NCBI GenBank assembly: GCA_963699755.1
Contig: CAVOVB010000004.1
Span: 32,001 to 96,000 of the forward strand
Source of the DNA: an uncultured delta proteobacterium
GTDB lineage: Bacteria > Myxococcota_A > Polyangia > Polyangiales > Houyiibacteriaceae
Reading direction: 5' to 3'
DNA: 64,000 nucleotides
The notes below the pieces were generated by a model. It did not search any database. It was not told the DNA's origin and saw nothing but the letters and a program-made list of their open reading frames with translations. A program made the position numbers and the translations under genes. Below, piece by piece: positions 1,833 to 47,569 of the stretch (position 1 is the first letter of the stretch; each line of letters opens with the position of its first letter).

Positions 1833-3722
1833 TCAGGGCACTTCGTAGCTGGTGGCAGACAAGCACCTCGCACCCTGATATTCGATCAGCCCGTTGGGCG
1901 GAGTCAGTGTGATCAGGTCGCCCGAGCTGATCGGTTGGGGTGAGCCACTGAGGGGCCATGATTGCTGTGCTCCCGCTGGGACCTGGCCGTACGCGACGGG
2001 TGGATCGAAGCCGGTATCCGAGTACACACTCCAGATTGGTCCGGCGAGTGGGCTCAACACGATCAGCGCCTGGGCGCCCACTGCGGGATCCCATGTGATT
2101 TCGCCAGTGCCATCGTCGTAGTTGATTTCCGGGAGCGGAACGAAACAGAACCCGAGCTCGAGATTGAGGTTGATCGATTCGCTCGGACACGTGAGAAAGC
2201 TCCGACGCGACTCGTAGAAGAAACTAGCAAGACCATCGGACTCATTCACCGAGGCTGTTACCGCCAGCAAGGTAGCGTGCGCATTGGAGACCTCGAACTG
2301 GCCGCTGCCGTCGCTGAGAACAGCCGGCGCACAAGTAGCACCGCAGATGCCTTCCGCCAGGTCCGGATCGAGCAGCTCGTCTTCGGCGAACACCACGACG
2401 TTTGCAACCGGTGCACCTTCCCTACGCACAGTTCCGTCTACGGTGCAGATCCCCGGCTGCACCTCGTTCGCCGGAACCAGCCCGAGCTCCCCAATCACCA
2501 TGCAACCGCTCGGACAAGTGGCGGAATCGGTTGTGAGCTCGGTCTCACTGAAGCGGTAGGTCTTTCCGCCGTTCTGGAAGGTCAACAGTACGGAAAGGGT
2601 TTCACCGCTGGTTCCATTCCCGTCCAGGTCTTCGCCGGGTTTCTCCGATCGGCGGGCATCCACGCAGAACGATCCATCTTCTTTGGTGGTGAAGGGTTGC
2701 GAGTTGCCGATGAAATTCACTCCCCGGACTGTTCCGGTGGCTCCTTTGATGGGCTTGCCTTCTTCGTCCACCACAACCCCGCCCATGCATGTGTTGTCTT
2801 CCAGGGGCCAGTCCACGTTCCAGTACGAAAAATGGGTTACTTCGGCTTCGGCAAAGAGCGTTCCTGAGTAGGAGCCATCGTGAATGCTGGCCAGGTCCGC
2901 TTCGGCGATGAGCGCTCCTCCGGCGTCCCGAATCTGCCCGGTTCCCTCCATGACCCAGTCCCCAGCGATCTCGTCGAAGTAGAACATGGGTACGGTGACC
3001 CGGTCATCACCGGGCATGATGTCCACGATCGCTTCCCAGGTATCCCGAGGCATCCGCATGCTGATGGTCGCCGGCTCACCGGGCTGAAGCTCCTCGATCA
3101 GATCGCCGCTTTCGTCCCTGAGCTCGAATGCCCCGAAGACGGCCGAGATCAGCATATTGCCTTGATTGTCTGAAAAAGAACCCGGAAAACGGTCCGCGTC
3201 CGACGCGGGGTTGAAGACCTTGGCGTAGCCAGAAGACACCTGGATGCTGGTGATGGACACCGTTCCAGCATCGTCCCGGCACCGGCTGTTCTCGCACAGC
3301 AACTCTTCCATCTCCGTCAAGGTTCCGTCCAGCGTGACATCCGCAAGCGCCTCGACTTTCACCGTCCGGATCAATTTTGCGTATCGGTCTTCTTCGAAGG
3401 TGACAACGGTAGTCTTGCCCTCCTCAGCTGGAGCATTCAAAGAATACTTGCCGTCTTCGCCCGCAAGGCCGGATGCGCTTTCGTTTGCTTCGATGGAACC
3501 ATCTCCGTCCCGGTCAAGGCTGGCCGTGACTCGTGCACCGTCGGCTGGATGCACCCCCTGCCCAGACGAAGACAGCAGGAAGAGTTGACCGGCAACCACG
3601 ATGGTATCACCTGCCCCGCCCGCACCGGCGGAACCACCGCCGCCACCCTGCGTCTCACCGCAGCCAAGCAACGACACCAGGCCCAGCGCGCAGAGGCACA
3701 GGAATCCGAATAAGCAACGCAT
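1833..3722 (-). CDS. Secreted lipoprotein with carboxypeptidase-regulatory-like beta-sandwich domains and an HFSxWNxD motif
   Basis: Signal MRCLFGFLCLCALGLVSLLGC (lipobox), Gly-rich linker, GxVVDxxGxPIxGA and GxVxxxGxPVANV repeats, VTHFSYWNVD. Confidence 0.75.
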   Translation of the reverse strand: MRCLFGFLCLCALGLVSLLGCGETQGGGGGSAGAGGAGDTIVVAGQLFLLSSSGQGVHPADGARVTASLDRDGDGSIEANESASGLAGEDGKYSLNAPAEEGKTTVVTFEEDRYAKLIRTVKVEALADVTLDGTLTEMEELLCENSRCRDDAGTVSITSIQVSSGYAKVFNPASDADRFPGSFSDNQGNMLISAVFGAFELRDESGDLIEELQPGEPATISMRMPRDTWEAIVDIMPGDDRVTVPMFYFDEIAGDWVMEGTGQIRDAGGALIAEADLASIHDGSYSGTLFAEAEVTHFSYWNVDWPLEDNTCMGGVVVDEEGKPIKGATGTVRGVNFIGNSQPFTTKEDGSFCVDARRSEKPGEDLDGNGTSGETLSVLLTFQNGGKTYRFSETELTTDSATCPSGCMVIGELGLVPANEVQPGICTVDGTVRREGAPVANVVVFAEDELLDPDLAEGICGATCAPAVLSDGSGQFEVSNAHATLLAVTASVNESDGLASFFYESRRSFLTCPSESINLNLELGFCFVPLPEINYDDGTGEITWDPAVGAQALIVLSPLAGPIWSVYSDTGFDPPVAYGQVPAGAQQSWPLSGSPQPISSGDLITLTPPNGLIEYQGARCLSATSYEVP

Positions 3723-4045
3723 GAGAAATCCCCACTCCGGACCCACCCGACTCGGGCAGGTCACAGCGCAGATCATGCAACCTGGGTCGCCGTGGCGCCC
3801 GTGACTATTTGCATTCTCTTGCTTTGCTCACACGCGCAAAGGTTGCGCCACGATCGTCGGAAAGGTGTCGGGAAAGCATTCTGATTCCCACCGGTCGGCA
3901 TCAACGCGCGCAGCATTTGCGCTGCGTCTTTTGGCGGGTCGCAGCTCTCCAGCAGCAGGCTTCGGAAGCAACCTTTGGTCACCCTCCATTCGGCTGCCCC
4001 ATCCGCAATGGGCCACCCGGCAGAGTGGCCCACGGTAGGCAGCCA

Positions 4046-4941
4046 TCACCCGACGTCGTGCAACGGACTTCCATCTGCTGCGAGGACGACGAGGTTGCCC
4101 GAGTTGGCGACGTCCGGTGCACCATAGGTGGCAAAGAGGACCTCGGGTGACCCGTCCTGGTTGAGGTCTGCAACAACCGGCTCCGACGCGTACATGACTG
4201 CCTGACCGTGCATGTAGTTGAACCGCCACAAGAGATGCGCGCCCGCGTCGAATGTGTAGAGGAAACCGTCGTTGAGAGATACGATTATCTCGGGTCGGTC
4301 GTCGCCCTGGAGGTTCACCGTAACAGCCGCAGGAGCTCCGAGCGGCGGATGCCAACCATCGACAAGAATGGGATCTTCGCCACGCGGTAGATTCTCCCAT
4401 CCCGACGGGCGCATCGCGGAGCGCGAGCCGTCTTCTTGCGCTCCCTCGAGCACCATCAGTGCGTACGCTTGTGTTTCGTAGGGCTCGTGCATCTCGACGT
4501 TGGGGATTCCCAGCACCTCGTTGTCGCCGTCGCCATCGACATCGACGATGTTCGGCAGAGAGGCCGTCCACTAGAGCCATTCCGCCCAGGCCGGGTGCGG
4601 CCATTCGCCGCTGTGGTCATGATAGTGGTCCGCTTCGACCTGAGGGTCCGGCCAGCGGATGAACTGCCCCCAAGTCAGGCGTTGCCGTGCAAATTCCGAG
4701 CTACGGTTCGTGAACCAGGGTGCGCTAGCGAGGTTGGCGATGAACACCGCTCTTGCACCTCTCCCTGATTCTCCCCTGCCGCGCAGATCGCATCGCGCTC
4801 CCCTTCTGTGCTGCTGCCTCCGCCGCGTAGCCCGTTGTCGTTGCCCGCGCTGCTGCATGCGGTCGTTCGGACAAACAAGAGAAGAAGCGCAACTCCACGC
4901 CTGGGTCCCCAGTCTCCATCAATCCCCCGAGTGCCGAGCAT
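4046..4941 (-). pseudogene. Degraded FG-GAP/VCBS-repeat secreted protein
   Basis: Signal-like N-terminus (VALLLLFVRTTAC), then a frameshift. In-frame TAG at 4571-4573 (EWL*WTAS). FG-GAP motifs VDVDGDGDNEV, NLQGDDRPEII and ADLNQDGSPEV, then a premature end at 4046. Confidence 0.7.
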
Positions 4942-5189
4942 TCAACAATGCCCGCCATTAATTGTACCGGTCGAAAGAGGACTACCAAAGCCGCTTGCGT
5001 ATGGGTGAGCGCAATTCCGCGAACGCCTGCTTTCATGATGCGCATTGCCCTCGTGGCGCATGGGCTTCACCGGACCTCGGTTGCCAAATCAAGACGAAAT
5101 CGAGGCGCCTAGAATGCCCCCAGGCGCAAGATCTGCGCGAGTTGGCGATTGGAGTCGCCGGAAATTGCCCGGAGCTGTGGTTCATCCGA

Positions 5190-5205
5190 CGGCATGAACT
5201 TTGCG
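5190..5205 (+). promoter_or_regulatory. Sigma54 (-24/-12) promoter of the HPF-CSD/archease/rtcB operon
   Basis: CGGCATGAACTTTGCG matches TGGCACG-N4-TTGC with exact GG-N10-GC spacing. It lies ~30 bp before the ATG at 5234 (RBS GAGGAG at 5221). Confidence 0.65.
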
Positions 5206-5233
5206 TGGTCGAAGGATGACGAGGAGTCGATCG

Positions 5234-5800
5234 ATGCAACACCCCCTGCAAATCACGTTCAAAGAGATGGAGCCCTCCGAAGCCGTCGAGAAGTGGGTAG
5301 AGGAGCGTGCGGCCAAGCTGGAGAAGTCTTATGCACCCATCATCCACTGCCACGTGGTCATCGAGGCGCCTCATCGGCGTTCCCGCCATGGCCGACTCTA
5401 TGGGGTTCGGATCGACATCACCGTCCCGGGCGGTGAAGTCGTGGTGAGTCAGCAGGGGCCGAAGGACCACGCTCATGAGGACGTGTACGTCGCGCTTCGA
5501 GATGCTTTCCGTGCCGCTCGGCGTCAACTTCAAGATGTAGCCCGAAAGCAACGCCGGGAGGTCAAGCGGCATGAGCCCCAAAGGCGCGCGCAAGTCACCA
5601 AGCTCTATCTCGCGGAAGGCTACGGCTTTCTCGAGGGGAGTGACGAAGTCGAGGTCTATTTTCACCGTAATGCGGTGCTCCATGGGGCGTTCGACGACCT
5701 CCGCATCGGTAGCCTCGTGCGGTACGTGCTGGCAGAGGGTGAAGGCAAAGCCGGGCCACAAGCCAGCACGGTGGAGCTCATCGGCGAAGTGGAGCCATAG
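5234..5800 (+). CDS. HPF/RaiA (S30AE) ribosome-associated protein fused to a C-terminal cold-shock domain
   Basis: N-terminal LQITF..MEPSEAV....EERAAKLE and [19 protein letters not shown]-terminal CSD motifs GYGFL, VYFH and GPQASTV. Confidence 0.9.
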
Positions 5801-5804
5801 CCCA

Positions 5805-6236
5805 ATGACCTCGCGTCCGCAGCCGTGCTGGGAGCACTTTGCCCACGATGCGGACATTGGCGTTCGCGGCCGTGGGCAATCGCTGGACATCGCCTTCGAG
5901 CAGGCTGCGCTTGGACTCACCGCCCTCGTTACCGATCCGAGCCTCGTGCGAAGCGACGAGCGGGTAGAGATCAGCTGCGAGGCACCGACCCTAGACGTGC
6001 TCCTCGTCGACTGGCTCAATGCGCTCATCTACGAGATGACAACGCGGTCGATGTTGTTCGGCCGCTTTCGTGTCAAGATCGACCGGCTCACGCTATCTGC
6101 ATTGGCACAGGGCGAACCTGTCGACCGTCGGCGCCACGAGCCCGCGGTAGAACCCAAGGGCGCGACGTTCACCGAGCTCCGAGTCAGCCACGACGACGAA
6201 GGACAGTGGATCGCGCAATGCGTCGTCGATGTGTGA
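5805..6236 (+). CDS. Archease (RtcB cofactor)
   Basis: [33 protein letters not shown]-terminal VVDV. Starts 4 bp after the previous stop. Confidence 0.93.
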
Positions 6237-6257
6237 ATCGGGGGGCTAGGAGGAAGC

Positions 6258-7688
6258 ATGGACATCAGCGCACTGCACCAGACATCCGAAGACCAATGGA
6301 TGCTCCGTGCCACGGGCAAGATGCGTGTTCCGGTGATCTTCTATGCCGACCGGACGCTGCTACAGGGAATGGATGAAAAGGTACGTGAGCAAGCCACCAA
6401 CGTTGCGACGTTGCCGGGGATTGTTCAGGCAAGCTATGTGATGCCCGACGGGCATTGGGGTTACGGCTTTCCCATCGGCGGAGTGGCCGCCTTCGATGCA
6501 AACGAAGGGGGTGTCGTATCGGCTGGGGGCGTGGGATTTGATATCTCCTGCGGTGTCCGCTGCTTGCTGACCGGATTGCAGACAGACGACATCGAGCCTG
6601 TGAAAGAGCAGCTTGCCGATGCGTTGTTCAGGCACATTCCGGCCGGTGTGGGAAGCACTGGTCACCTTCACCTCGACGAAGCCGAGATGTCCGCGATGCT
6701 ACTCGGCGGCGCGCGCTGGGCGGTCGATCGAGGATGGGGCTCAAGGGAGGATCTCGAGCGGATCGAGGAGCACGGTTGCATGCGCGGCGCGGAGCCGAAG
6801 CATGTGTCTCAAAAAGCGCGCGACAGACAGCGCGACGAGATGGGAACACTCGGCTCGGGAAACCACTACCTCGAGGTGCAGCGTGTCGCGGAGATCTTCG
6901 CGCCCGGCGTGGCCTCCGAGCTATCAATTGCGGAGGGCGACGTGGTCGTCGCCATTCACTGCGGGTCGAGGGGGCTTGGGCATCAGATTGGCACCGAGTA
7001 TCTGCGTGAGATGGCCATCACCTCCGAGGAGCACGGCATCGAGCTTCCCGATCGCGAGCTTGCTTGTGCTCCGTTGCGTTCCGAGGTGGGCCGTCGATAT
7101 CTCGGCGCCATGCGCGCTGGGATCAACTGCGCGCTCGCCAACCGGCAGATCATCACGCATCTCACGCGCCAGGTGTTTAGCGGCCTGTTGCCGAAGGCCG
7201 AGCTTCCGCTGCTCTACGATGTCTCCCACAACACCTGCAAAGAGGAAGAGCACGTCGTCGATGGCATGCGAAGGCGTTTGTTCGTTCATCGAAAGGGGGC
7301 CACACGCGCATTCGGGCCGGGACATCCCGAGCTGCCGGAACAGCTTCGCACGATCGGCCAACCGGTGTTGATCGGGGGCAGCATGGGAACCGAATCCTGG
7401 GTACTCGTCGGCACGGCAGGGGGCATGGTTCTCTCCTTTGGGTCTGCATGCCATGGTGCGGGGCGGCGGATGAGCCGCCACCGCGCCAAGAAGCAATGGC
7501 GCGGCAACAAGGTGATCCAGAATCTCGGACACCGCGGCATCATCGTTCGATCGGTCAGTATGCGAGGCGTCGCGGAGGAAGCACCCGGGGCGTACAAAGA
7601 CGTTCGCGTCGTGGTCGACTCCGCCGATCGAGCAGGGCTCGCGCGCAAGGTCGCACGCCTCGAGCCCATGGTGTGTATCAAGGGTTAG
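6258..7688 (+). CDS. rtcB: RtcB RNA 2',3'-cyclic-phosphate/5'-OH ligase
   Basis: MPDGH.GYGFPIG, GFDISCGVR, GTLGSGNHYLE, HCGSRG, DVSHN, HRKGAT, SACHGAGR, EEAP.AYKD. Strong RBS AGGAGG. Confidence 0.97.
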   Translation: MDISALHQTSEDQWMLRATGKMRVPVIFYADRTLLQGMDEKVREQATNVATLPGIVQASYVMPDGHWGYGFPIGGVAAFDANEGGVVSAGGVGFDISCGVRCLLTGLQTDDIEPVKEQLADALFRHIPAGVGSTGHLHLDEAEMSAMLLGGARWAVDRGWGSREDLERIEEHGCMRGAEPKHVSQKARDRQRDEMGTLGSGNHYLEVQRVAEIFAPGVASELSIAEGDVVVAIHCGSRGLGHQIGTEYLREMAITSEEHGIELPDRELACAPLRSEVGRRYLGAMRAGINCALANRQIITHLTRQVFSGLLPKAELPLLYDVSHNTCKEEEHVVDGMRRRLFVHRKGATRAFGPGHPELPEQLRTIGQPVLIGGSMGTESWVLVGTAGGMVLSFGSACHGAGRRMSRHRAKKQWRGNKVIQNLGHRGIIVRSVSMRGVAEEAPGAYKDVRVVVDSADRAGLARKVARLEPMVCIKG

Positions 7689-7696
7689 GTGTGCTC

Positions 7697-7713
7697 TAAC
7701 CCCACCCACGTTG
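7697..7713 (-). repeat. REP-like 17-mer, left inverted copy
   Basis: Minus strand reads CAACGTGGGTGGGGTTA, 14/17 identical to CAACCTGGGTGCGGTTG at 9482 and 9523. Confidence 0.6.
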
Positions 7714-7927
7714 ACTCGCGACTTCGCAGGATCGGTGGGTGAGCCGCGTGTCTCCGGGCGTCGGTTGTACGCAACGCGCCCGGGCTGAGGCAGAAAGCTT
7801 TTCAGTGCGGAAGCGCAGCCGAGGCTCCAGACCTGAAATCTGTGCTCGGAAGTGCCGCAAGAATGCGCCCATCCCTCGGCCGTCGCCCCACACGACTGCC
7901 GCGCTCACATCGATTGGAATGGACGCG

Positions 7928-8836
7928 CTACGACTGCGCCACGGCCCGGTGCACTCGGCACATGCACCAAGTGCCCTGTGGAAACACGACGCTGCGTAGC
8001 CCCGCGCGCCAATGCTCGAGTGCCTCTCGGTAGGCGTGCCGAAACGCGCGAAGCTCGGCCACGGCCTCAAAGAACATCTTCTTCTGCCCCCGCCCGACCG
8101 CAAAAGTCGGGTTTCGATCTCGGAGCAGCTCAAAACTCGTCGCCCTTCGATACGGCGAGAGTCGACGAATGCGGTCTGCCCCGAGAATGCGCCAACCATG
8201 CTTTCGGATCTCGAGGTGCGCCATTCGTTCTTGGCGCGCGAGCTCTTCTTGGACAGCCTCCCGCAGCGCCTCGGCGCTGTACCTTTGCTTCAGGCTCGGT
8301 GGCAGCGTGAGCGTTAGCGTACCGCAGTCAGGCCACCTTGCGTTCTTCGGGTTGAAGTATGCTTTCGGGCGCTTTGCCGTCCAAACCCGGCGCCCGAGCT
8401 CGTGCGGGAGCACCGTGATGCCGGGCCAGTCCCGTGCATGACGGACTAGACGCGCCTTGACGGGGTTGGCCATCACATACGCGAGCTTCTCGATGACGGC
8501 TTGCTCCGTCAGCAAGCGAACGACCGAGGCTTGCTCTGGCTCCCAGGTGGGCCCCTCCCACTTGCGAAGCACTTTGCTCCCGAGCGACACCAAGCGATGG
8601 AGGTGCCGAAGGAAATCAGGGTGCCGCCCCTTCGTGTCGGTGACGATCAGATGCTCGTGGGTCGACATGAGAGTGACGGCGTGCACGAGGATGCCGAACT
8701 GTCGAGCGCAGATCGCGAGCGTGTAGAGGTAGAGCTGGCGAATGGCGGAATCGGGGCGGAAGAGGTGATGGCGCCGAAGGGTCCGTCGGGTGATCATCAG
8801 GGTGTCGCCGGGGAGCACGAGGCGGGGTTGAGTCAT
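7928..8836 (-). mobile_element. REP-associated tyrosine (Y1/HUH) transposase, RAYT/TnpA-REP-like, with C-terminal extension
   Basis: ITRR N-terminal strand, HUH motif LMSTHEHLIV, catalytic Tyr in YVMANPVKARLV....DWP. Intact 302-aa ORF with no tnpB. Confidence 0.85.
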
Positions 8837-8940
8837 GGAACAGCTCGAGACGCATGAAGCGGGCCAGGTTTCCCGAATGTGATTTCAATACGTTGCGGTG
8901 GCTGCGGCTGGCGGATACCGTCGACCTCGTTGGCGGACGC

Positions 8941-9010
8941 CAACGTGGGTTAGGCACGTTCCATTGATTCTGCTCGGCGCAACCTGGGTTCGGTTGTCAG
9001 GGTTCGGTTG
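8941..9010 (+). repeat. Cluster of REP-like motifs upstream of RAYT
   Basis: CAACGTGGGT (8941-8950), CAACCTGGGTTCGGTTG (8980-8996) and partial GGGTTCGGTTG (9000-9010). Confidence 0.65.
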
Positions 9011-9460
9011 TTCACTTGAGCTCAGCAAAGTCGACAGTGCGCTCCAACAGTGGGGGCGACAACCGGTCGCTCCCGTCGGGCGCAAGAAGGCTTACTGTGC
9101 CGGTACACTCCGCCTTGCGGCGCTTCTGTCGGTCATGCGGAAGAACGAACCGGCAGTCGAACCGCGCCTACCCGCCTAGGACTCCGCGCACTTTGCGCTC
9201 TGTGACGGTCCCTTGTCCGAACCCTTCAACGTGGTGCAGTGCGTGCTGCGCCGCGTCCCCGTCGACAGATCGAGGACGGAACCTTGATTGCACGCAGTCT
9301 TCATCCAGCACCCTGTGCCCGGGCAACACAAACCCGACCAAGAGCACGTATCGATGGGTAAGTCGCGGTTCGAGCAAGGGCATTCATGGGGCTGCTATTC
9401 CCTTGTTCTCAGCGACGAAACGGGTCTCGGTGCACGTTGGATCTTGCTCGATTGACAGCA

Positions 9461-9541
9461 GCCGCTCTATCGACGGTTGCTCAACCTGGGTGCGGTTGCT
9501 CGCCGTTCTATCGACGGTTGCTCAACCTGGGTGCGGTTGCT
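9461..9541 (+). repeat. Tandem duplication of a 40-bp unit (period 41), each unit holding a REP-like hairpin
   Basis: GCCGYTCTATCGACGGTTGCTCAACCTGGGTGCGGTTGCT at 9461-9500 and 9502-9541, one mismatch. Confidence 0.92.
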
Positions 9542-9592
9542 GTTAGTATCTGGTCGGCGCGATTCGCCGAAGTCGCGCATCTGGGCCGGAGC

Positions 9593-10687
9593 TCAGCGGA
9601 GCGCTTCTTCAAGCGCGCCGAGGCAGAGCTGGACGTGGCGCGGTGTCGCCGAGGCGCCCATCAGGCCGATGCGCCAGGCCTTGCCTTTGAAGTCCCCGAG
9701 GCCCCCGCCGATTTCGAGACCGTAGTCCGCAAGGAGCTTCGCGCGCACTGTGCGATCGTCGATACCTTCTGGGACCCGAACCACAGTGAGGGGAGGGAGT
9801 CGGACGTTTTCGGCGACCGGAAGGTCCAGGCCCAGCGATTCCAGGCCTTGGCGAAGCGCCTCTGCTTGCTCACAGTGACGCGCGTACCGAGCCTTGAGCC
9901 CTTCTTCGAGCACGACTCGAAGGGCTTCGTGCAGCGCGAAGATCATGTTCACCGGCGCCGTGTGGTGATAGACACGCTCGCCGCCGAAGTACTGGCCAAG
10001 TAGGTTCAAGTCGAAGTACCAGCTTTGGACCGGTGTCCTGCGCGTCGAGAAGACTACTCGCGCGCGCTCGGAAAACGAAACTGGTGAAAGTCCCGGTGGG
10101 CATGAAAGACACTTCTGCGTGCCGGAGTAGACCGCGTCGATCCCCATCTGGTCGACCTCCACCGCGACACCGCCGAGGGACGTGACCGCATCCACGAGCA
10201 GCAACGCGCCACACGAATCTGCAATCGCGCGAAAGGGACTGAGATCCTGAAGCACACCGGTCGAGGTTTCGGCGTGCACGATGGCAAGCACTTTGAATGA
10301 GCTCTTCTTCGCCACCCTCGCAACCTCGTCCGGATCGATGGCTTGCCCAAAGGGCGCATCGACGAGGGTAACCGCGGCGCCACAGCGTCTTGCCACTTCA
10401 GCCATGCGCCCACCGAAGACACCGTGCCGACAGATCAGCGCCTGGTCACCAGTTTCGAGTAGGTTCACGAAGCAGGTCTCCATGCCCGCTGAGCCCGTCC
10501 CTGAGATCGGGAGCGTCAGCGCGTTCTCCGTTCCGAACACCTGCCGAAGCATGGTCTGCGTTTCGTCCAGGACTTGCAAAAAGATGGGGTCCAGATGCCC
10601 GATCGTGGGCCGCGAGAGCGCGTCCAACACTCGGGCAGGAACGTCAGAAGGTCCTGGTCCCATCAACACTCGTTGAGTCGGAGTCAT
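9593..10687 (-). CDS. Alanine-glyoxylate/serine-pyruvate aminotransferase (class V PLP)
   Basis: [48 protein letters not shown]. Confidence 0.93.
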
Positions 10688-31355: not shown

Positions 31356-32651
31356 CTACGCGCAGGCGGCTTCTACGTCGTCGATCTCTTTGGGGATGCC
31401 GTCGGTAAGCACGTCACGACCCGATCGGGTCACCAATACGTCGTCTTCGATCCGAACGCCGATGCCACGCCAGCGTTCATCCACGTCTTCGTTGTCGGTC
31501 GCGATGTAGATGCCCGGCTCGACGGTCAGCACGAAGTCTGGTTCGAGCTGGCGCTGCTTGCCGTCGAGGTAGTAGTGCCCCACGTCGTGCACGTCCATTC
31601 CGAGCCAGTGGGAGGTCCGGTGCATGTAAAACGGCTCGTATTTCTTCTCGTCGATGAGCAAATCGAGCTCGCCCCCGAGCAAGCCGAGGGCGACGAGGCC
31701 CTCGGTGATCAGACGAACGGCGCACTGATGGACCTCGTCGAGCGTCGATCCCGGCTTCACGGCATCGATGCTCGCCTTCTGAGCCCGGAGAACGACATCA
31801 TAGATCGCCCGTTGTTCCGCGGAAAACTTGCCGTTGACGGGGAAGGTACGGGTGACATCGCTCGCATAGTAATCGTACTCGCAGCCTGCATCGATTAGCA
31901 GGAGCTCGCCGTCGTTGATCTGCCGAGCGCCCGCCCGGTAGTGGAGGATCGTAGCATTGGGCCCGGAACCGACGATGCTCTCGTAGGCTGGACGCTCGCT
32001 TCCATGCTTGCGAAAGACATGAAGGAGCTCCGCATCGATTTCGTATTCGTGCATGCCGGGGCGCGCGAGCCGCATTGCACGCAGGTGAGCCTCTCTGGTG
32101 ATCGCCGCTGCCTGCCTCATCGTCGCGATTTCGTCTGTGCTCTTGCGTAGGCGCATCTCGTGCAAGTGAACGGAGGAATCGATGATCGCCGCGGGCGCGG
32201 TTACGCCGCGGCGCTCGCCTCTTCGGAGCTGGTTGAGGCAATTGAAAACCTTGGCATCCGCCTCGTCGTTTTGCGCGAGGCGATAGTGGAGACGCTCGAC
32301 GTTTCCGAGGTAGTCGGGGAGCTTGCCCGGGAGCTCTTCGATCGGAAAGGCGACATCGGCGCCAAAATCCTCGACTGCACCTTCGATGCCTGCGCGAGGC
32401 CCATCCCAGATTTCCCGCTCGCGCTTCTTCGGGCGAACGAAAAGGACCACCTCGTGCTCCGCGTGTTGATTGGTTAGCAGAAGCAGGCTTTCGGGCTCAT
32501 CCAAGCCGCTGAGATAGTAGAGGTCGCTGTCCTGCCGGTACGGGTGCCCGACGTCGTGGTTGCGAATGGCGAGGGGGGTCGACGGAAACAGCGCGACACC
32601 GTCACCCATGGCTTCGAGAAGCTGCTTGCGGCGTGCGGCGAACTCCGACAT
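31356..32651 (-). CDS. pepP: Xaa-Pro aminopeptidase
   Basis: YRQDSD.YYL, LIDAGCE...YASDVTRT.P, HRTSHWLGMDVHD, TVEPG, RIEDD. Confidence 0.95.
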   Translation of the reverse strand: MSEFAARRKQLLEAMGDGVALFPSTPLAIRNHDVGHPYRQDSDLYYLSGLDEPESLLLLTNQHAEHEVVLFVRPKKREREIWDGPRAGIEGAVEDFGADVAFPIEELPGKLPDYLGNVERLHYRLAQNDEADAKVFNCLNQLRRGERRGVTAPAAIIDSSVHLHEMRLRKSTDEIATMRQAAAITREAHLRAMRLARPGMHEYEIDAELLHVFRKHGSERPAYESIVGSGPNATILHYRAGARQINDGELLLIDAGCEYDYYASDVTRTFPVNGKFSAEQRAIYDVVLRAQKASIDAVKPGSTLDEVHQCAVRLITEGLVALGLLGGELDLLIDEKKYEPFYMHRTSHWLGMDVHDVGHYYLDGKQRQLEPDFVLTVEPGIYIATDNEDVDERWRGIGVRIEDDVLVTRSGRDVLTDGIPKEIDDVEAACA

Positions 32652-43704: not shown

Positions 43705-45609
43705 ATGAGCGACATCGACTTGGCTTTGCGGGAGCGTTTTGGGCTTCCGGCCTTTCATCCCTGGCAGCGCGAAGCGATCGAGGAGCTCCTCGAAGGGCGG
43801 CGGCGGGTTGTGGTGATCGCCCCAACTGGTGGGGGAAAGTCGCTTTGTTACCAGCTACCTGCCGCCGTGCTCGAAGGCACCTCCATCGTCATCTCGCCCC
43901 TCATCGCACTCATGGAAGATCAGGTGCGAGCGCTCACGCAACGCGGAGTCGCGGCGACTTATCTAGCGTCGACGCTCGACCCGGATGAAGTGAAGAGACG
44001 GGAGCGCGAAATCTTCGAGGGCCGCTACCAACTCGCGTACGTGGCGCCGGAGCGCCTAGAGTCGCAGTGGCTCGTCGACAGGCTCGCGGCGATCCACCCC
44101 CCACTGCTCGCAATCGACGAAGCACACTGCATTTCCCAGTGGGGCCATGATTTTCGACCCTCGTACCTGAGGCTCGGCGAGGTCATCGAACGGCTGCAGC
44201 CTCCCCGGGTGATTGCCTGCACGGCGACCGCCACGCCGATCGTGCGTCGCGAAATTCAAGCGCGGCTTGGGCTCGATTCAGATCGGAGCGCCGTCATTTT
44301 GCGCGGTTTCTCACGCCCGAATCTTCATCTTGCCGTCGTAGAGAGCGATAGCTCCACCCAGAGGCGCAAGCTTATGCTTGGCGCGCTTCGGGGTGCGCTT
44401 GGAGCTCCCGCGAACCCCAAGGGGGGCGCCATCGTGTACGCGGCGACTCGGCGCAACACCGAGAACGTCGCGGAGGCCGTCGCCAAAGACGGTTGGCGGG
44501 TCGCCGCATACCACGCCGGGCTTTCTGCTGCCGTGCGCGAAGAGGTCAACCGGAGTTTCGCAGATCATTCGCTCGACGTAGTGGTCGCCACCAATGCATT
44601 CGGCATGGGTATCGATCGGGCTGACATTCGCACGGTGGTGCACGTGCAAGCGCCTGGCTCAGTCGAGGCTTACTATCAAGAGATAGGGCGCGCGGGTCGT
44701 GATGGGCAGCCTGCACATGGGCTCTTACTGACCAGCTCAGGGGACCTCGGGCTACGACGTCGCTTGATCGGCTTCACTGGCGGCCGAGATCCCGGCGGCC
44801 CAGAGGACCCCGCGCACGCTCAGCAGCAGTGGCGCCTCTTCCTCGATCTCATGCGGTACGTCGAAGCGGGGAGCTGCCGGCACGATTTCATTCTGCGCTA
44901 TTTCGGCGACGAGCAGGAAACCCTGGGCGGCTGCGGTCACTGCGACGTATGCGAGCGCCTCGAAGAGCGAGGCGAGGAGGGCGGGTCACGAACCACCTCT
45001 GAAGACGAGACCCTACTGGTGCGCAAAGCGCTCGCCGGTGTCGCGCGCAATCAGGGGCGCGCGGGGCTGACCGCGGTTTCAGAGATGCTTCATGGCACCC
45101 AGAGCGAACGCCTGCGTCGATTGGGGCTCACCGAGCTCAGCACGCATGGCTTGCTCAAAGAGTGGCCCAAGGCCTGGGTACTCGCCCTTCTGAGGCGGCT
45201 CATCACAGCGGGTCTCGTCGATCTCAGCACGGGTGAGTTTCCGATCCCTCATCTGACGACGCTTGGGGTGGCGACCATGAAAGGTGAAGAGCCGGTTCGC
45301 GTGCTCGTCCCCGACGAGGACGCTGGCCGCCCCCCATCGGCCAAGAAGGAACGCCGGCAGGGGAGCCGGGACCTCCCCGAGGACGTCGACGTGTCGCTCT
45401 TCGAAAGCTTGCGCGCGACACGTCTCGATCTCGCCCGCAAGAAGGGCGTTCCTGCCTATGTCGTCTGCCACGACCGAACGCTTCTTGAAATCGCCGCCTC
45501 TAAACCCACCTCGGTCGAGGCACTGGCCCGTATTCACGGGATGGGCCCCGCGCGCATCGAGCGCTACGGGGAGCCGTTCCTCGACACCGTGAACTCCCAC
45601 GCGCCGTAG
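43705..45609 (+). CDS. recQ: ATP-dependent DNA helicase RecQ (RQC + HRDC)
   Basis: PTGGGKSLCYQLP, DEAHCISQWGHDFRP, ATNAFGMGID, YYQEIGRAGRDG, CG.CD.C, HRDC VPAYVV. Confidence 0.96.
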   Translation: MSDIDLALRERFGLPAFHPWQREAIEELLEGRRRVVVIAPTGGGKSLCYQLPAAVLEGTSIVISPLIALMEDQVRALTQRGVAATYLASTLDPDEVKRREREIFEGRYQLAYVAPERLESQWLVDRLAAIHPPLLAIDEAHCISQWGHDFRPSYLRLGEVIERLQPPRVIACTATATPIVRREIQARLGLDSDRSAVILRGFSRPNLHLAVVESDSSTQRRKLMLGALRGALGAPANPKGGAIVYAATRRNTENVAEAVAKDGWRVAAYHAGLSAAVREEVNRSFADHSLDVVVATNAFGMGIDRADIRTVVHVQAPGSVEAYYQEIGRAGRDGQPAHGLLLTSSGDLGLRRRLIGFTGGRDPGGPEDPAHAQQQWRLFLDLMRYVEAGSCRHDFILRYFGDEQETLGGCGHCDVCERLEERGEEGGSRTTSEDETLLVRKALAGVARNQGRAGLTAVSEMLHGTQSERLRRLGLTELSTHGLLKEWPKAWVLALLRRLITAGLVDLSTGEFPIPHLTTLGVATMKGEEPVRVLVPDEDAGRPPSAKKERRQGSRDLPEDVDVSLFESLRATRLDLARKKGVPAYVVCHDRTLLEIAASKPTSVEALARIHGMGPARIERYGEPFLDTVNSHAP

Positions 45610-46385
45610 CCGACCACTTCATCGCGGCTTCCCGCGGTGTCGCCCGAGCTTCTGAGGTCCAAGGTCCGCGGGACGAGCCCGTGTCGTTGCGCCACCTGCA
45701 AGAGCCCCTGAATGCCCGTGCGGCCGCAGGCGTCTTCTGCATCGATGCGTTCCGGCGCAAATGATTCGATGGCCGATGCAGTCGCCTCGTCCATGCGCTT
45801 GGCGGTGTCGTAGTCGTGGTAATGGCTCAAGTCGGAGCTGATGACGATGAGTGTTTCATCGCCGCCCCAGAGCGCTTCCAGGACATTCGCCACCTGCGCT
45901 GGCGAGGCCCGTCCGACCGTGATTGGAAGAACGGCAAATGCGCCGAGCACCTCCTGCAGAAACGGAAGCTGAACCTCGAGCGAGTGTTCCCAGTGGTGCG
46001 CATCGTCGCGTACCTGGACATAGGGGAGACGCAGCACTTCGCGGCGGGCCGTTTCATCGATGGGAACCGACCCGAGCGGCGTTTCGAAGGCGGTGTCGCT
46101 GGGAACGGCCAAGCCGTCGAAAGGCAGACGATGACTCGGCCCGATCAGCACGACGCGCTTAACCAGCTCCCGTGCGCCCTCCAGCTGGACGAATGCCGTG
46201 GCGGCGACTGGCCCCGAGTACGCATAGCCAGCGTGTGGCACGATGAGCGCCTTCGGCCAGGGATCGCGCGCTGCGGAATCGCTGCGGGCCGAATCGAGCT
46301 GCTCGCGGACCACGGCGCGCAAAGCAGCCCCGCTCGCTGGATAAAACGAACCGGCGACCGCAGCTAATCGAACCCTGGCCACCAA
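45564..46385 (-). CDS. amrB: AmmeMemoRadiSam system protein B (MEMO1-like)
   Basis: AVAGSFYP, PHAGY.YSG, GPSH, EHSLEVQLPFLQ, SSDLSHY, SGD......VVGY. Confidence 0.93.
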   Translation of the reverse strand: MVARVRLAAVAGSFYPASGAALRAVVREQLDSARSDSAARDPWPKALIVPHAGYAYSGPVAATAFVQLEGARELVKRVVLIGPSHRLPFDGLAVPSDTAFETPLGSVPIDETARREVLRLPYVQVRDDAHHWEHSLEVQLPFLQEVLGAFAVLPITVGRASPAQVANVLEALWGGDETLIVISSDLSHYHDYDTAKRMDEATASAIESFAPERIDAEDACGRTGIQGLLQVAQRHGLVPRTLDLRSSGDTAGSRDEVVGYGAWEFTVSRNGSP

Positions 46386-46468
46386 CGAAATCTGAGCACG
46401 TTCGAGAACTTGTCAACGCGAGCGAGTCGGGCTTGCAAGTGAGACCCTGGATGCGCATCGTGTCTTTG

Positions 46469-47569
46469 ATGGTTCAACCCCTCAAATCAACGGTGGCGAC
46501 TGACTATTGGAGCCTGCTCGAGGACGGACGGGTTCTCTGCGAGCTCTGCCCGCGGGCCTGCAAGCTTGGTGAGGGTCAGCGTGGGCTCTGTTTCGTCCGG
46601 GCCCGCGAAGATGACGCGGTCGTGCTGACCACCTATGCGCGGTCGAGCGGATTCGCCGTGGACCCGATCGAAAAGAAGCCCCTCAACCACTTCCTACCCG
46701 GAACGCCGGTGTTCTCCTTTGGGACGGCAGGCTGCAATCTGACATGCAAGTTCTGTCAGAACTGGGACATCTCGAAGTCTCGCCAGATGGACACGCTCGC
46801 TGACGCGGCGGGGCCCGATGAAATCGCCGATGCGGCTGAGCGACTCGGCTGCCGGAGCGTGGCGTTCACCTACAATGATCCGGTGATCTTTCTCGAGTAT
46901 GCGCGCGACGTCGCCCATGCGTGCAAAGAGCGCGGCATCCGAACCGTCGCCGTGACCGCGGGCTACGTCAACCCTGCGCCGAGGGCCGAATTCTTTTCCT
47001 TCATCGACGCGGCCAACATCGACTTGAAAGCATTCGATGACGACTTCTACCGTCGGATCGCTGGCGCGCGACTCGAGCCGGTCTTGGACACGTTGCGCTA
47101 CCTTCGCCACGAGACCAACGTTTGGTTCGAGATCACCAACCTCGTGATACCCGGGCATAACGACGCAGACGACGACATTCGACGGATGAGCGATTGGATC
47201 GTCGAAGAGCTAGGTCCAGACGTGCCATTGCATTTCTCCGCGTTTCATCCGAGCTACAAGATGCTGGATGTGCCTCCCACCTCGCGAGCGGCTCTGCATC
47301 GAGCGAGGAGCATCGCCCGCGAAGCCGGAGCTCGTTACGTTTACACCGGCAACGTGCACGACCGAGAAGGTGACACGACGTATTGCGCTGCTTGCGGAAC
47401 ATCGCTGATCACCCGTGATTGGTATGAGATCCTGTCTTGGAACCTCGAGGAAGGAGCCTGTCCGGGCTGTGGCACTCGCTGTGCCGGCGTGTTCGAGGCG
47501 CAACGCGGGACCTGGGGCGCCCGCCGCCTTTCGGTCAAAATGGCGCCGGACGGAATCGCGCTCTCGTAG
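46469..47569 (+). CDS. amrS: AmmeMemoRadiSam system radical SAM enzyme
   Basis: C.LCPR.C, DPIEKKPL.HF.PG, GCNL.CKFCQNW.IS, TYNDP, PLHFSAFHP, YVYTGNV. Confidence 0.94.
   Translation: MVQPLKSTVATDYWSLLEDGRVLCELCPRACKLGEGQRGLCFVRAREDDAVVLTTYARSSGFAVDPIEKKPLNHFLPGTPVFSFGTAGCNLTCKFCQNWDISKSRQMDTLADAAGPDEIADAAERLGCRSVAFTYNDPVIFLEYARDVAHACKERGIRTVAVTAGYVNPAPRAEFFSFIDAANIDLKAFDDDFYRRIAGARLEPVLDTLRYLRHETNVWFEITNLVIPGHNDADDDIRRMSDWIVEELGPDVPLHFSAFHPSYKMLDVPPTSRAALHRARSIAREAGARYVYTGNVHDREGDTTYCAACGTSLITRDWYEILSWNLEEGACPGCGTRCAGVFEAQRGTWGARRLSVKMAPDGIALS

Follow-up and report, generated by a model that had tools for sequence, protein, structure and literature searches.

Ribosome hibernation factors that join an HPF domain to a cold-shock domain (CSD) are known as HPFcold (CBU_0020; structures PDB 9T0Z and 9TZE; Stuart et al., bioRxiv 10.1101/2025.11.08.686982 = PMC13392368). 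As described there, the HPF domain occupies the tRNA cleft of the 70S monomer, and the CSD wraps the anti-Shine-Dalgarno (anti-SD) of the 16S rRNA. The conserved surface is reported to be limited to the anti-SD face, with little conservation elsewhere. Archease is reported to make the RNA ligase RtcB capable of multiple turnover, and mutagenesis found H9, D12, K117, D141, the C-terminal carboxylate, and E8 to be needed for RtcB activation (PMC3973293, PMC4604427). Bacteria, in which archease-dependent RtcB also occurs, are without archaeal-type tRNA splicing (PMC3973293, PMC4604427). We analyzed a locus in which genes for an HPF-CSD fusion, archease, and RtcB follow one another. It lies in a window of 64,000 nucleotides from an uncultured delta proteobacterium (positions 32,001 to 96,000 of contig CAVOVB010000004.1, assembly GCA_963699755.1; genome G000 in our survey, in which C-numbers denote its contigs and other G- and L-numbers comparison genomes and loci). 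The assembly (completeness 100%, contamination 9%) has its closest relatives among Myxococcota of the SG8-38 type.

The three genes are probably a low-oxygen operon driven by sigma-54, with products that act in parallel and no dedicated HPF-RtcB complex. We give this reading a probability of about 0.65. An earlier note on this DNA had described three tightly packed, co-oriented genes with gaps of 4 bp (HPF-CSD to archease) and 21 bp (archease to rtcB) and with intact motifs, and the open reading frames (ORFs), gaps, and motifs bear this out. Pfam matches over cut-off cover the HPF and CSD halves of the fusion (PF02482, residues 5-106; PF00313, residues 120-181), archease (PF01951), and RtcB (PF01139). 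Each gene has a single close copy in the assembly. The features are listed below. The region in which that note's description begins, at 5190, coincides with a predicted sigma-54 site, which the note did not mention.

Features of the HPF-CSD/archease/rtcB locus (window coordinates)
Feature	Position	Strand	Basis
S1, candidate distal enhancer 15 nt upstream of S2, differing from the NmpR consensus at 3 positions	5094-5108	+	Spacing conservation
S2, perfect GCGCA-N5-TGCGC palindrome, predicted NmpR-type enhancer, 0 mismatches	5124-5138	.	Conservation and consensus identity
Predicted sigma-54 -24/-12 promoter (GG 5191-5192, GC 5203-5204)	5190-5206	+	Conserved; top genome-wide score
HPF-CSD fusion, a ribosome hibernation factor of the HPFcold class, 188 amino acids	5234-5800	+	Pfam, full-length match to PDB 9T0Z, F132/Y142 kept
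Archease, RtcB activator, 143 amino acids	5805-6236	+	Pfam and residue comparison with P. horikoshii
RtcB RNA ligase, archaeal-type (archease-partnered), cysteine form, 476 amino acids	6258-7688	+	Pfam, alignment, TGC codon

By its sequence the fusion protein belongs to the described class HPFcold. It shares the two-domain architecture and gives a full-length match to chain 9 of PDB 9T0Z (E 2.5e-32). Of the residues that contact the anti-SD, the stacking pair F132 and Y142 is retained, and R123 is replaced by K. Among 38 aligned HPF-CSD rows F132 is present in all and Y142 in 37. The secondary rRNA contacts of HPFcold are unmatched: R177 corresponds to T179, and KLEVG to DLRIG, with D155 in place of the lysine. 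KLEVG is reported to be common to two species only, so it is not family-defining (PMC13392368). The AlphaFold model of the window protein (pLDDT 77.9) shows both folds, and a Foldseek search with it returned single-domain HPF and CSP matches, with 9T0Z not among the 50 matches listed. A protein search gave 3934 matches at E <= 1e-20 among 4259 candidates. From the likeness to HPFcold, the protein would be expected to bind 70S ribosomes and protect the 16S 3' end, and the 16S rRNA of this genome has a canonical anti-SD. A short HPF is also encoded in the genome, beside rpoN.

The other two products resemble the archease-rtcB operons of P. horikoshii and Thermus thermophilus in gene adjacency and in catalytic and metal residues. 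RtcB residues 13-476 align with P. horikoshii RtcB (518 bits), and D64, D95, C98, N202, H203, H234, H324, H399, E441, Y446, and K475 are invariant in an alignment of 40 sequences. These are catalytic residues, and the metal and guanylylation sites are intact. The codon for C98 is TGC, ruling out a selenocysteine RtcB. Archease H14, D17, K118, D142, and the terminal V143 correspond to H9, D12, K117, D141, and I142 of P. horikoshii, while the position of E8 is Ala. By analogy with the studied relatives, archease would let the window RtcB turn over many times, and the ligase would join 2',3'-cyclic phosphate or 3'-phosphate ends to 5'-OH ends with GTP and Mn. Unlike the P. horikoshii and T. thermophilus operons (PMC3973293, PMC4604427), the pair here follows a hibernation factor gene and a predicted oxygen-controlled sigma-54 promoter, in addition to the change at E8. 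One comparison rtcB gene (G742, L273:4158-5588) was called as two ORFs though tblastn aligns residues 1-476, possibly through an internal stop.

RtcB is likewise tied to a ribosome-related partner in the RtcB2-PrfH and RtcR-RtcBA modules (PMC13166195, PMC6514570). Those are described as answering RNA damage, whereas the window operon is predicted to answer low oxygen. The earlier note was right that rtcA, rtcR, prfH, and TROVE are missing from the operon, and rtcA does occur on another contig (C10). With rtcA unlinked to rtcB and RtcR not found in the genome, the RtcR-RtcBA layout is absent; TROVE was not found in the genome either. No PrfH scored over cut-off in the genome, and the operon lacks the pairing of prfH with a release_rtcB-type ligase. 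The window RtcB scores 111 bits against the RtcB2 (release_rtcB-type) profile, where the cut-off is 272, placing it in another subfamily. The rtcA gene (C10:256701-257648) lies about 9 kb from an island with PolX and HSP20, beside an endonuclease V gene.

In Myxococcus xanthus, NmpR is described as a regulator of the NtrC type that depends on sigma-54 and acts downstream of a protoglobin kinase, with 6.5-fold induction under hypoxia and a consensus defined by electrophoretic mobility shift and reporter assays (PMC11841059). The window has the same consensus and a tandem-site/sigma-54 layout with a degenerate S1, and the genome has a protoglobin kinase and shared targets. S2 lies 66 bp upstream of a sigma-54-type site, and in 11 of 12 close relatives the DNA before HPF-CSD likewise holds the palindrome with such a site 66-69 bp downstream. 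The promoter is predicted from the sigma-54 -24/-12 consensus, and rpoN is present in the genome. The palindrome was found de novo in the relatives and recognized only afterwards as the NmpR consensus. A motif matrix trained on these relatives, with the window left out, gave 112 matches in G000, 56 of them intergenic (30 of 47 at a stricter cut), in a genome with 12.8% intergenic DNA. For 20 permuted palindromes the highest results were 25 of 69 and 14 of 33, respectively. A count of NmpR-type sites before 11 of the 15 HPF-CSD genes of the genus was set aside as circular, those 11 having trained the matrix. The 15-nt spacing of S1 and S2 with at most three mismatches recurs in seven of 11 relatives, for which chance gives about 1.9%. 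Because the promoter matches the NmpR binding site, the trio genes are likely co-induced at low oxygen.

Other motif sites in G000 flank a cbb3 oxidase cluster and genes for USPs, CBS proteins, hemerythrin, nqrA, wax-ester synthase, L-LDH, and PolX, as well as a cytochrome c/COX1-family pair that we read as norCB. The cbb3, USP, CBS, and hemerythrin targets are common to the NmpR regulon reported for M. xanthus (PMC11841059). A protoglobin kinase gene and an NtrC-type regulator gene (C7:269904-271328) lie within the motif-flanked cbb3 cluster. They are present in 52 and 50 of 55 congeners, respectively, and in a distant family they adjoin each other in all 12 genomes. That the kinase and regulator genes are neighbors here is one difference from M. 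xanthus NmpRSTU; the degenerate S1 is another. A distant genus has three genomes in which about 8 kb or less separates HPF-CSD from the kinase/regulator pair. The main text of the NmpR paper (PMC11841059) has no occurrence of "ribosom", "hibernation", or "RtcB". If correct, our assignment adds translation maintenance to the NmpR regulon, in a myxobacterial genus that is uncultured. The genome holds two diverged copies of a large low-oxygen cluster with cbb3 oxidase, nqr, and USPs (C7:236-273 kb and C1:1729-1768 kb; L243-L246), their kinases 83% and regulators 93% identical, either by duplication or as part of the 9% assembly contamination.

Under the proposed mechanism, an NmpR-like activator would switch on the sigma-54 promoter at low oxygen, and the three genes would be transcribed together. 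HPFcold would hold 70S ribosomes in an idle state with the 16S 3' end capped, and in parallel RtcB, activated by archease, would likely re-seal nicked tRNA or rRNA. The sigma-54 activation by NmpR under hypoxia is carried over from M. xanthus, as the binding mode and RtcB chemistry are from their studied relatives; oxygen as the signal here, the RNA that is sealed, and co-transcription from the sigma-54 promoter are inferred. In RNA libraries, one contig crosses the HPF-archease junction (5630-5863, 1 difference) and one the archease-rtcB junction (6099-6323); the libraries may hold DNA, so these contigs do not show a transcript. Of the words searched in RNA libraries, 5-7% were present in three metatranscriptomes. 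A scan for sigma-70 promoters gave one antisense site, no better than chance, and no convincing terminator was seen 3' of rtcB (z -1.7). Rfam gave 0 matches over 3700-9600.

To determine how far HPF-CSD and archease-rtcB go together, we surveyed 55 genomes of the genus, some of them incomplete. HPF-CSD is encoded in 15, archease in 17, and both in 13. The two are directly adjacent in six of these 13, unlinked in another six, and probably linked in one (G004), via astA-astD-astB across a contig break inside astB. Two congeners have HPF-CSD alone and four archease alone. A draw of 301 Myxococcota contained 31 genomes outside the genus with a full-length HPF-CSD (E <= 1e-25); ten of them also encode archease, in none of which are the two on one contig. 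Among 46 archease-rtcB loci outside the genus, four have a divergent HPF-CSD and two a short HPF within 3.5 kb. Archease is present in 12 of 401 Pseudomonadota, with HPF-CSD within 1 kb in two, one being the center genome found through HPF. Plasmids gave 11 HPF-type and five archease records, and in Methylocella the HPF-type and archease genes are about 154 kb apart.

We also examined 104 HPF-CSD loci outside the genus: 77 from metagenomes (80 kept of 549, less three resembling the genus), 14 from genome contigs, and 13 from Myxococcota. ORFs of the compared loci were chosen with a codon model. Archease or rtcB lies within 600 bp in nine of these and within 3 kb in 11, where about 0.1 is expected, CBS in 11 and 15, and USP in four and 13; these counts are lower bounds because many contigs are short, and related loci are not independent. 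YbaK reaches five and baeRF12 four within 600 bp, which places archease/rtcB second to CBS among the known families at that distance. The orders HPF-archease-rtcB, archease-rtcB-HPF, and rtcB-archease-HPF occur, as do divergent and convergent arrangements, and an unrelated Pseudomonadota locus (L173) has the order of the window. In a quick tree of 125 HPF-CSDs the 22 RtcB-linked rows, five of which were picked through archease, are scattered, and sisters differ in linkage, including the window's sister L001. No alignment column separates 12 linked from 42 unlinked HPF-CSDs (21 of 40 permutations were as extreme). There is no dedicated RtcB-linked HPFcold subfamily, and the linkage is recurrent but loose. 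Four Myxococcota from three families (L193, L200, L202, L214) have rtcB-archease near an HPF-CSD of one long-branch subgroup.

The neighborhood search proposed in the earlier note thus gave a divided answer: the adjacency recurs in unrelated lineages, and roughly every second congener with both parts has them separated. As to whether the trio has been characterized, the HPF-CSD class is known as HPFcold, and a link from it to RtcB-archease was not found in the literature searched; Burroughs and Aravind 2016 (PMC5062991), outside that scope, may list the neighborhood. The HPFcold preprint text and its five supplements mention neither RtcB nor archease. As far as the article was available, Burroughs and Aravind 2019 link HPF to baeRF and RtcB to PrfH, with archease unmentioned. 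The operon is made of known parts; what is new is the combination and the predicted regulation.

In congeners, the trio genes belong to a shuffled island with PCMT-erythromycin esterase, HSP20, PolX, GroEL, CBS, and LonC. Part of this island is on C10 in the window's genome, the trio standing apart from it as an intact unit with a promoter. Elsewhere the neighbors of HPF-CSD include HSP20, USP, CBS, PRTase, PfkB, NAPRTase, baeRF12, and BCAM0308, like the DosR and lxa sets. In a FastTree of 72 RtcBs, 31 of 39 rows of the window's clade and two of 33 rows of the other have HPF or island genes within 4 kb. With the genus and HPF-picked rows removed, the first figure is 13 of 21. The operon suggests that the RtcBs of one clade serve in dormancy at low oxygen. 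A YbaK-type tRNA editing domain is beside HPF-CSD in L092, L095, L105, L142, and L146, baeRF12 in L096, L115, L140, and L018, and BCAM0308 (a weak NMD3 match) in L111, L147, L200, L202, and L214, a hint that these islands carry a broader set of genes for translation maintenance. In our view the trio is the part devoted to maintaining translation within a hypoxia and dormancy gene set that is widespread and freely shuffled.

DosR offers a parallel. Its hypoxia set is described with HSP20, USP, PfkB, and a P-type ATPase; this regulon holds RafH (Rv0079), the Balon homologue Rv2629, and the RtcB Rv2631 (PMC5309233, PMC10901736, PMC3721108). The hibernation factor gene Rv2629 is two genes before rtcB there, as a hibernation factor is near rtcB here, and hibernation genes near rtcB had already been noted for Balon. 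The Burkholderia lxa locus is reported with a similar gene set, and members of its BCAM0308 family occur beside some HPF-RtcB loci. Both sets, DosR and lxa, differ in having other regulators, and Balon is non-homologous to HPF-CSD. Since a non-homologous factor is also near rtcB, shared regulation fits better than a specific interface.

HPF-CSD genes also follow oxygen-type sites beyond the genus. An FNR-type box precedes 38 of 85 metagenomic or proteobacterial HPF-CSD genes (shuffled mean 6.3, maximum 11) and none of the 15 in the window's genus. An NmpR-type site precedes five of 17 other Myxococcota HPF-CSD loci against 0.85. HPFcold would then track low-oxygen regulators across phyla. The conditions of HPFcold expression have so far been established in one organism at most. 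Both these conditions and the role of a bacterial archease-RtcB become testable with a unit of three genes whose promoter can be predicted and mutated.

Several observations weigh against a low-oxygen operon of this kind. In M. xanthus tandem sites, the second site is 14-15 nt off with at most two deviations and a perfect GCA-N5-TGC core (PMC11841059); S1 is degenerate, its three mismatches and imperfect core being unlike the bound sites. In that paper NmpR-dependent hypoxic induction is shown for mxan_4236 of M. xanthus only. The NtrC-type regulator is a putative NmpR orthologue by synteny and motif. In four congeners with archease-rtcB divergently placed after PolX, no such promoter is directly upstream. 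An FNR box with one mismatch precedes only three of 16 proteobacterial or metagenomic archease-rtcB units (against 0.1). There is also Rv2630, which we take to be archease. It is listed as unchanged in a proteomic table in which most DosR proteins fell (PMC12976132). Many genes that follow the motif, lipoprotein-like ones among them, have no clear link to oxygen; the trio's left neighbor is one. This last point also suits a real co-regulated operon that answers another Fis-type regulator or signal, such as RegB/RegA redox control, starvation, or envelope stress. A RegB/RegA-like pair, below cut-offs, is in the genome and could bind the motif, as could over 20 other HTH_8 regulators (24 HTH_8 matches in all). 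RegA-type proteins are not known to be sigma-54 activators. With an exact NmpR consensus, a sigma-54 site at enhancer distance, and motif sites surrounding the protoglobin kinase/NtrC-type pair itself, another regulator seems the least probable of the alternatives.

The earlier note had proposed a "park and repair" module in which HPF-CSD stabilizes or marks damaged ribosomes and presents RNA ends to RtcB. In the form weighed here, HPF-CSD would keep a damaged ribosome or a severed 16S 3' fragment in position for archease-RtcB to receive the ends. That the trio is a plausible single unit, with hibernation factors recurring beside RtcB far above chance, bears out part of this; E. coli RtcB is moreover reported to re-ligate a 43-nt 16S fragment bearing the anti-SD (PMC6101614), the region targeted by the CSD. 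A dedicated module that marks damage and presents ends is unlikely. The linkage recurs in at least five arrangements scattered over the HPF-CSD and RtcB trees, L173 included, but the trio is adjacent in fewer than half of the congeners with both parts, sister HPF-CSDs differ, and no residue is specific to linked proteins. The CSD has a known RNA target, the anti-SD that it caps, and the only strongly conserved exposed patch described for HPFcold faces that RNA. A direct hand-over to RtcB is unsupported. Nor does ribotoxin damage, which the note had given as an example, fit a promoter and neighbors that point to low oxygen and dormancy. It is also doubtful, to the same degree as the coupled module, that "store and mend" dormancy units arose repeatedly under three unrelated oxygen sensors (NmpR, FNR-type, and DosR), the HPFcold CSD clamping the anti-SD-bearing 3' piece of nicked 16S rRNA for rejoining by archease-RtcB. 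If so, ribosome hibernation would for the first time be physically coupled to the repair of rRNA, and a physiological substrate would be in hand for bacterial RtcB of the archease type. A slightly slimmer chance falls to juxtaposition within a stress island, where deletion of astA-astD-astB left archease-rtcB behind the HPF promoter with no joint selection. The orders HPF>astA>astD>astB and astB>archease>rtcB are found in congeners, the G004 contigs break inside astB, and HPF or archease-rtcB is cleanly lost in congener loci L008, L010, L178, L179, and L184. However, the linkage re-forms in unrelated lineages and orders, the trio here is intact with its own promoter apart from the C10 island, and island or HPF neighbors are frequent in the window's RtcB clade even in unbiased rows. 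We therefore favor co-regulation at low oxygen. Co-regulation alone, if true, is a useful annotation, while a coupling of hibernation to ligation, if true, would be a new mechanism.

A second perfect GCGCA-N5-TGCGC site in the window (3908-3922, minus strand) precedes the lipoprotein-like gene at 1833-3722, with a sigma-54-like site 72 bp on, and several similar lipoprotein-like genes in the genome show this layout. Directly after rtcB is a tyrosine-transposase-like ORF (7928-8836, minus strand; NF047646 match below cut-off), with eight related copies elsewhere in the genome at 39-45% identity. A 40-nt tandem duplication and short repeats lie upstream of it (8977-9541). This ORF and the repeats may be traces of the trio's departure from the C10 island. 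ARAGORN with introns allowed made 27 intron calls in 84 lines, mostly implausibly long. Farther along the window, 45564-47569 holds divergent genes for an AmmeMemoRadiSam protein B and a radical SAM protein.

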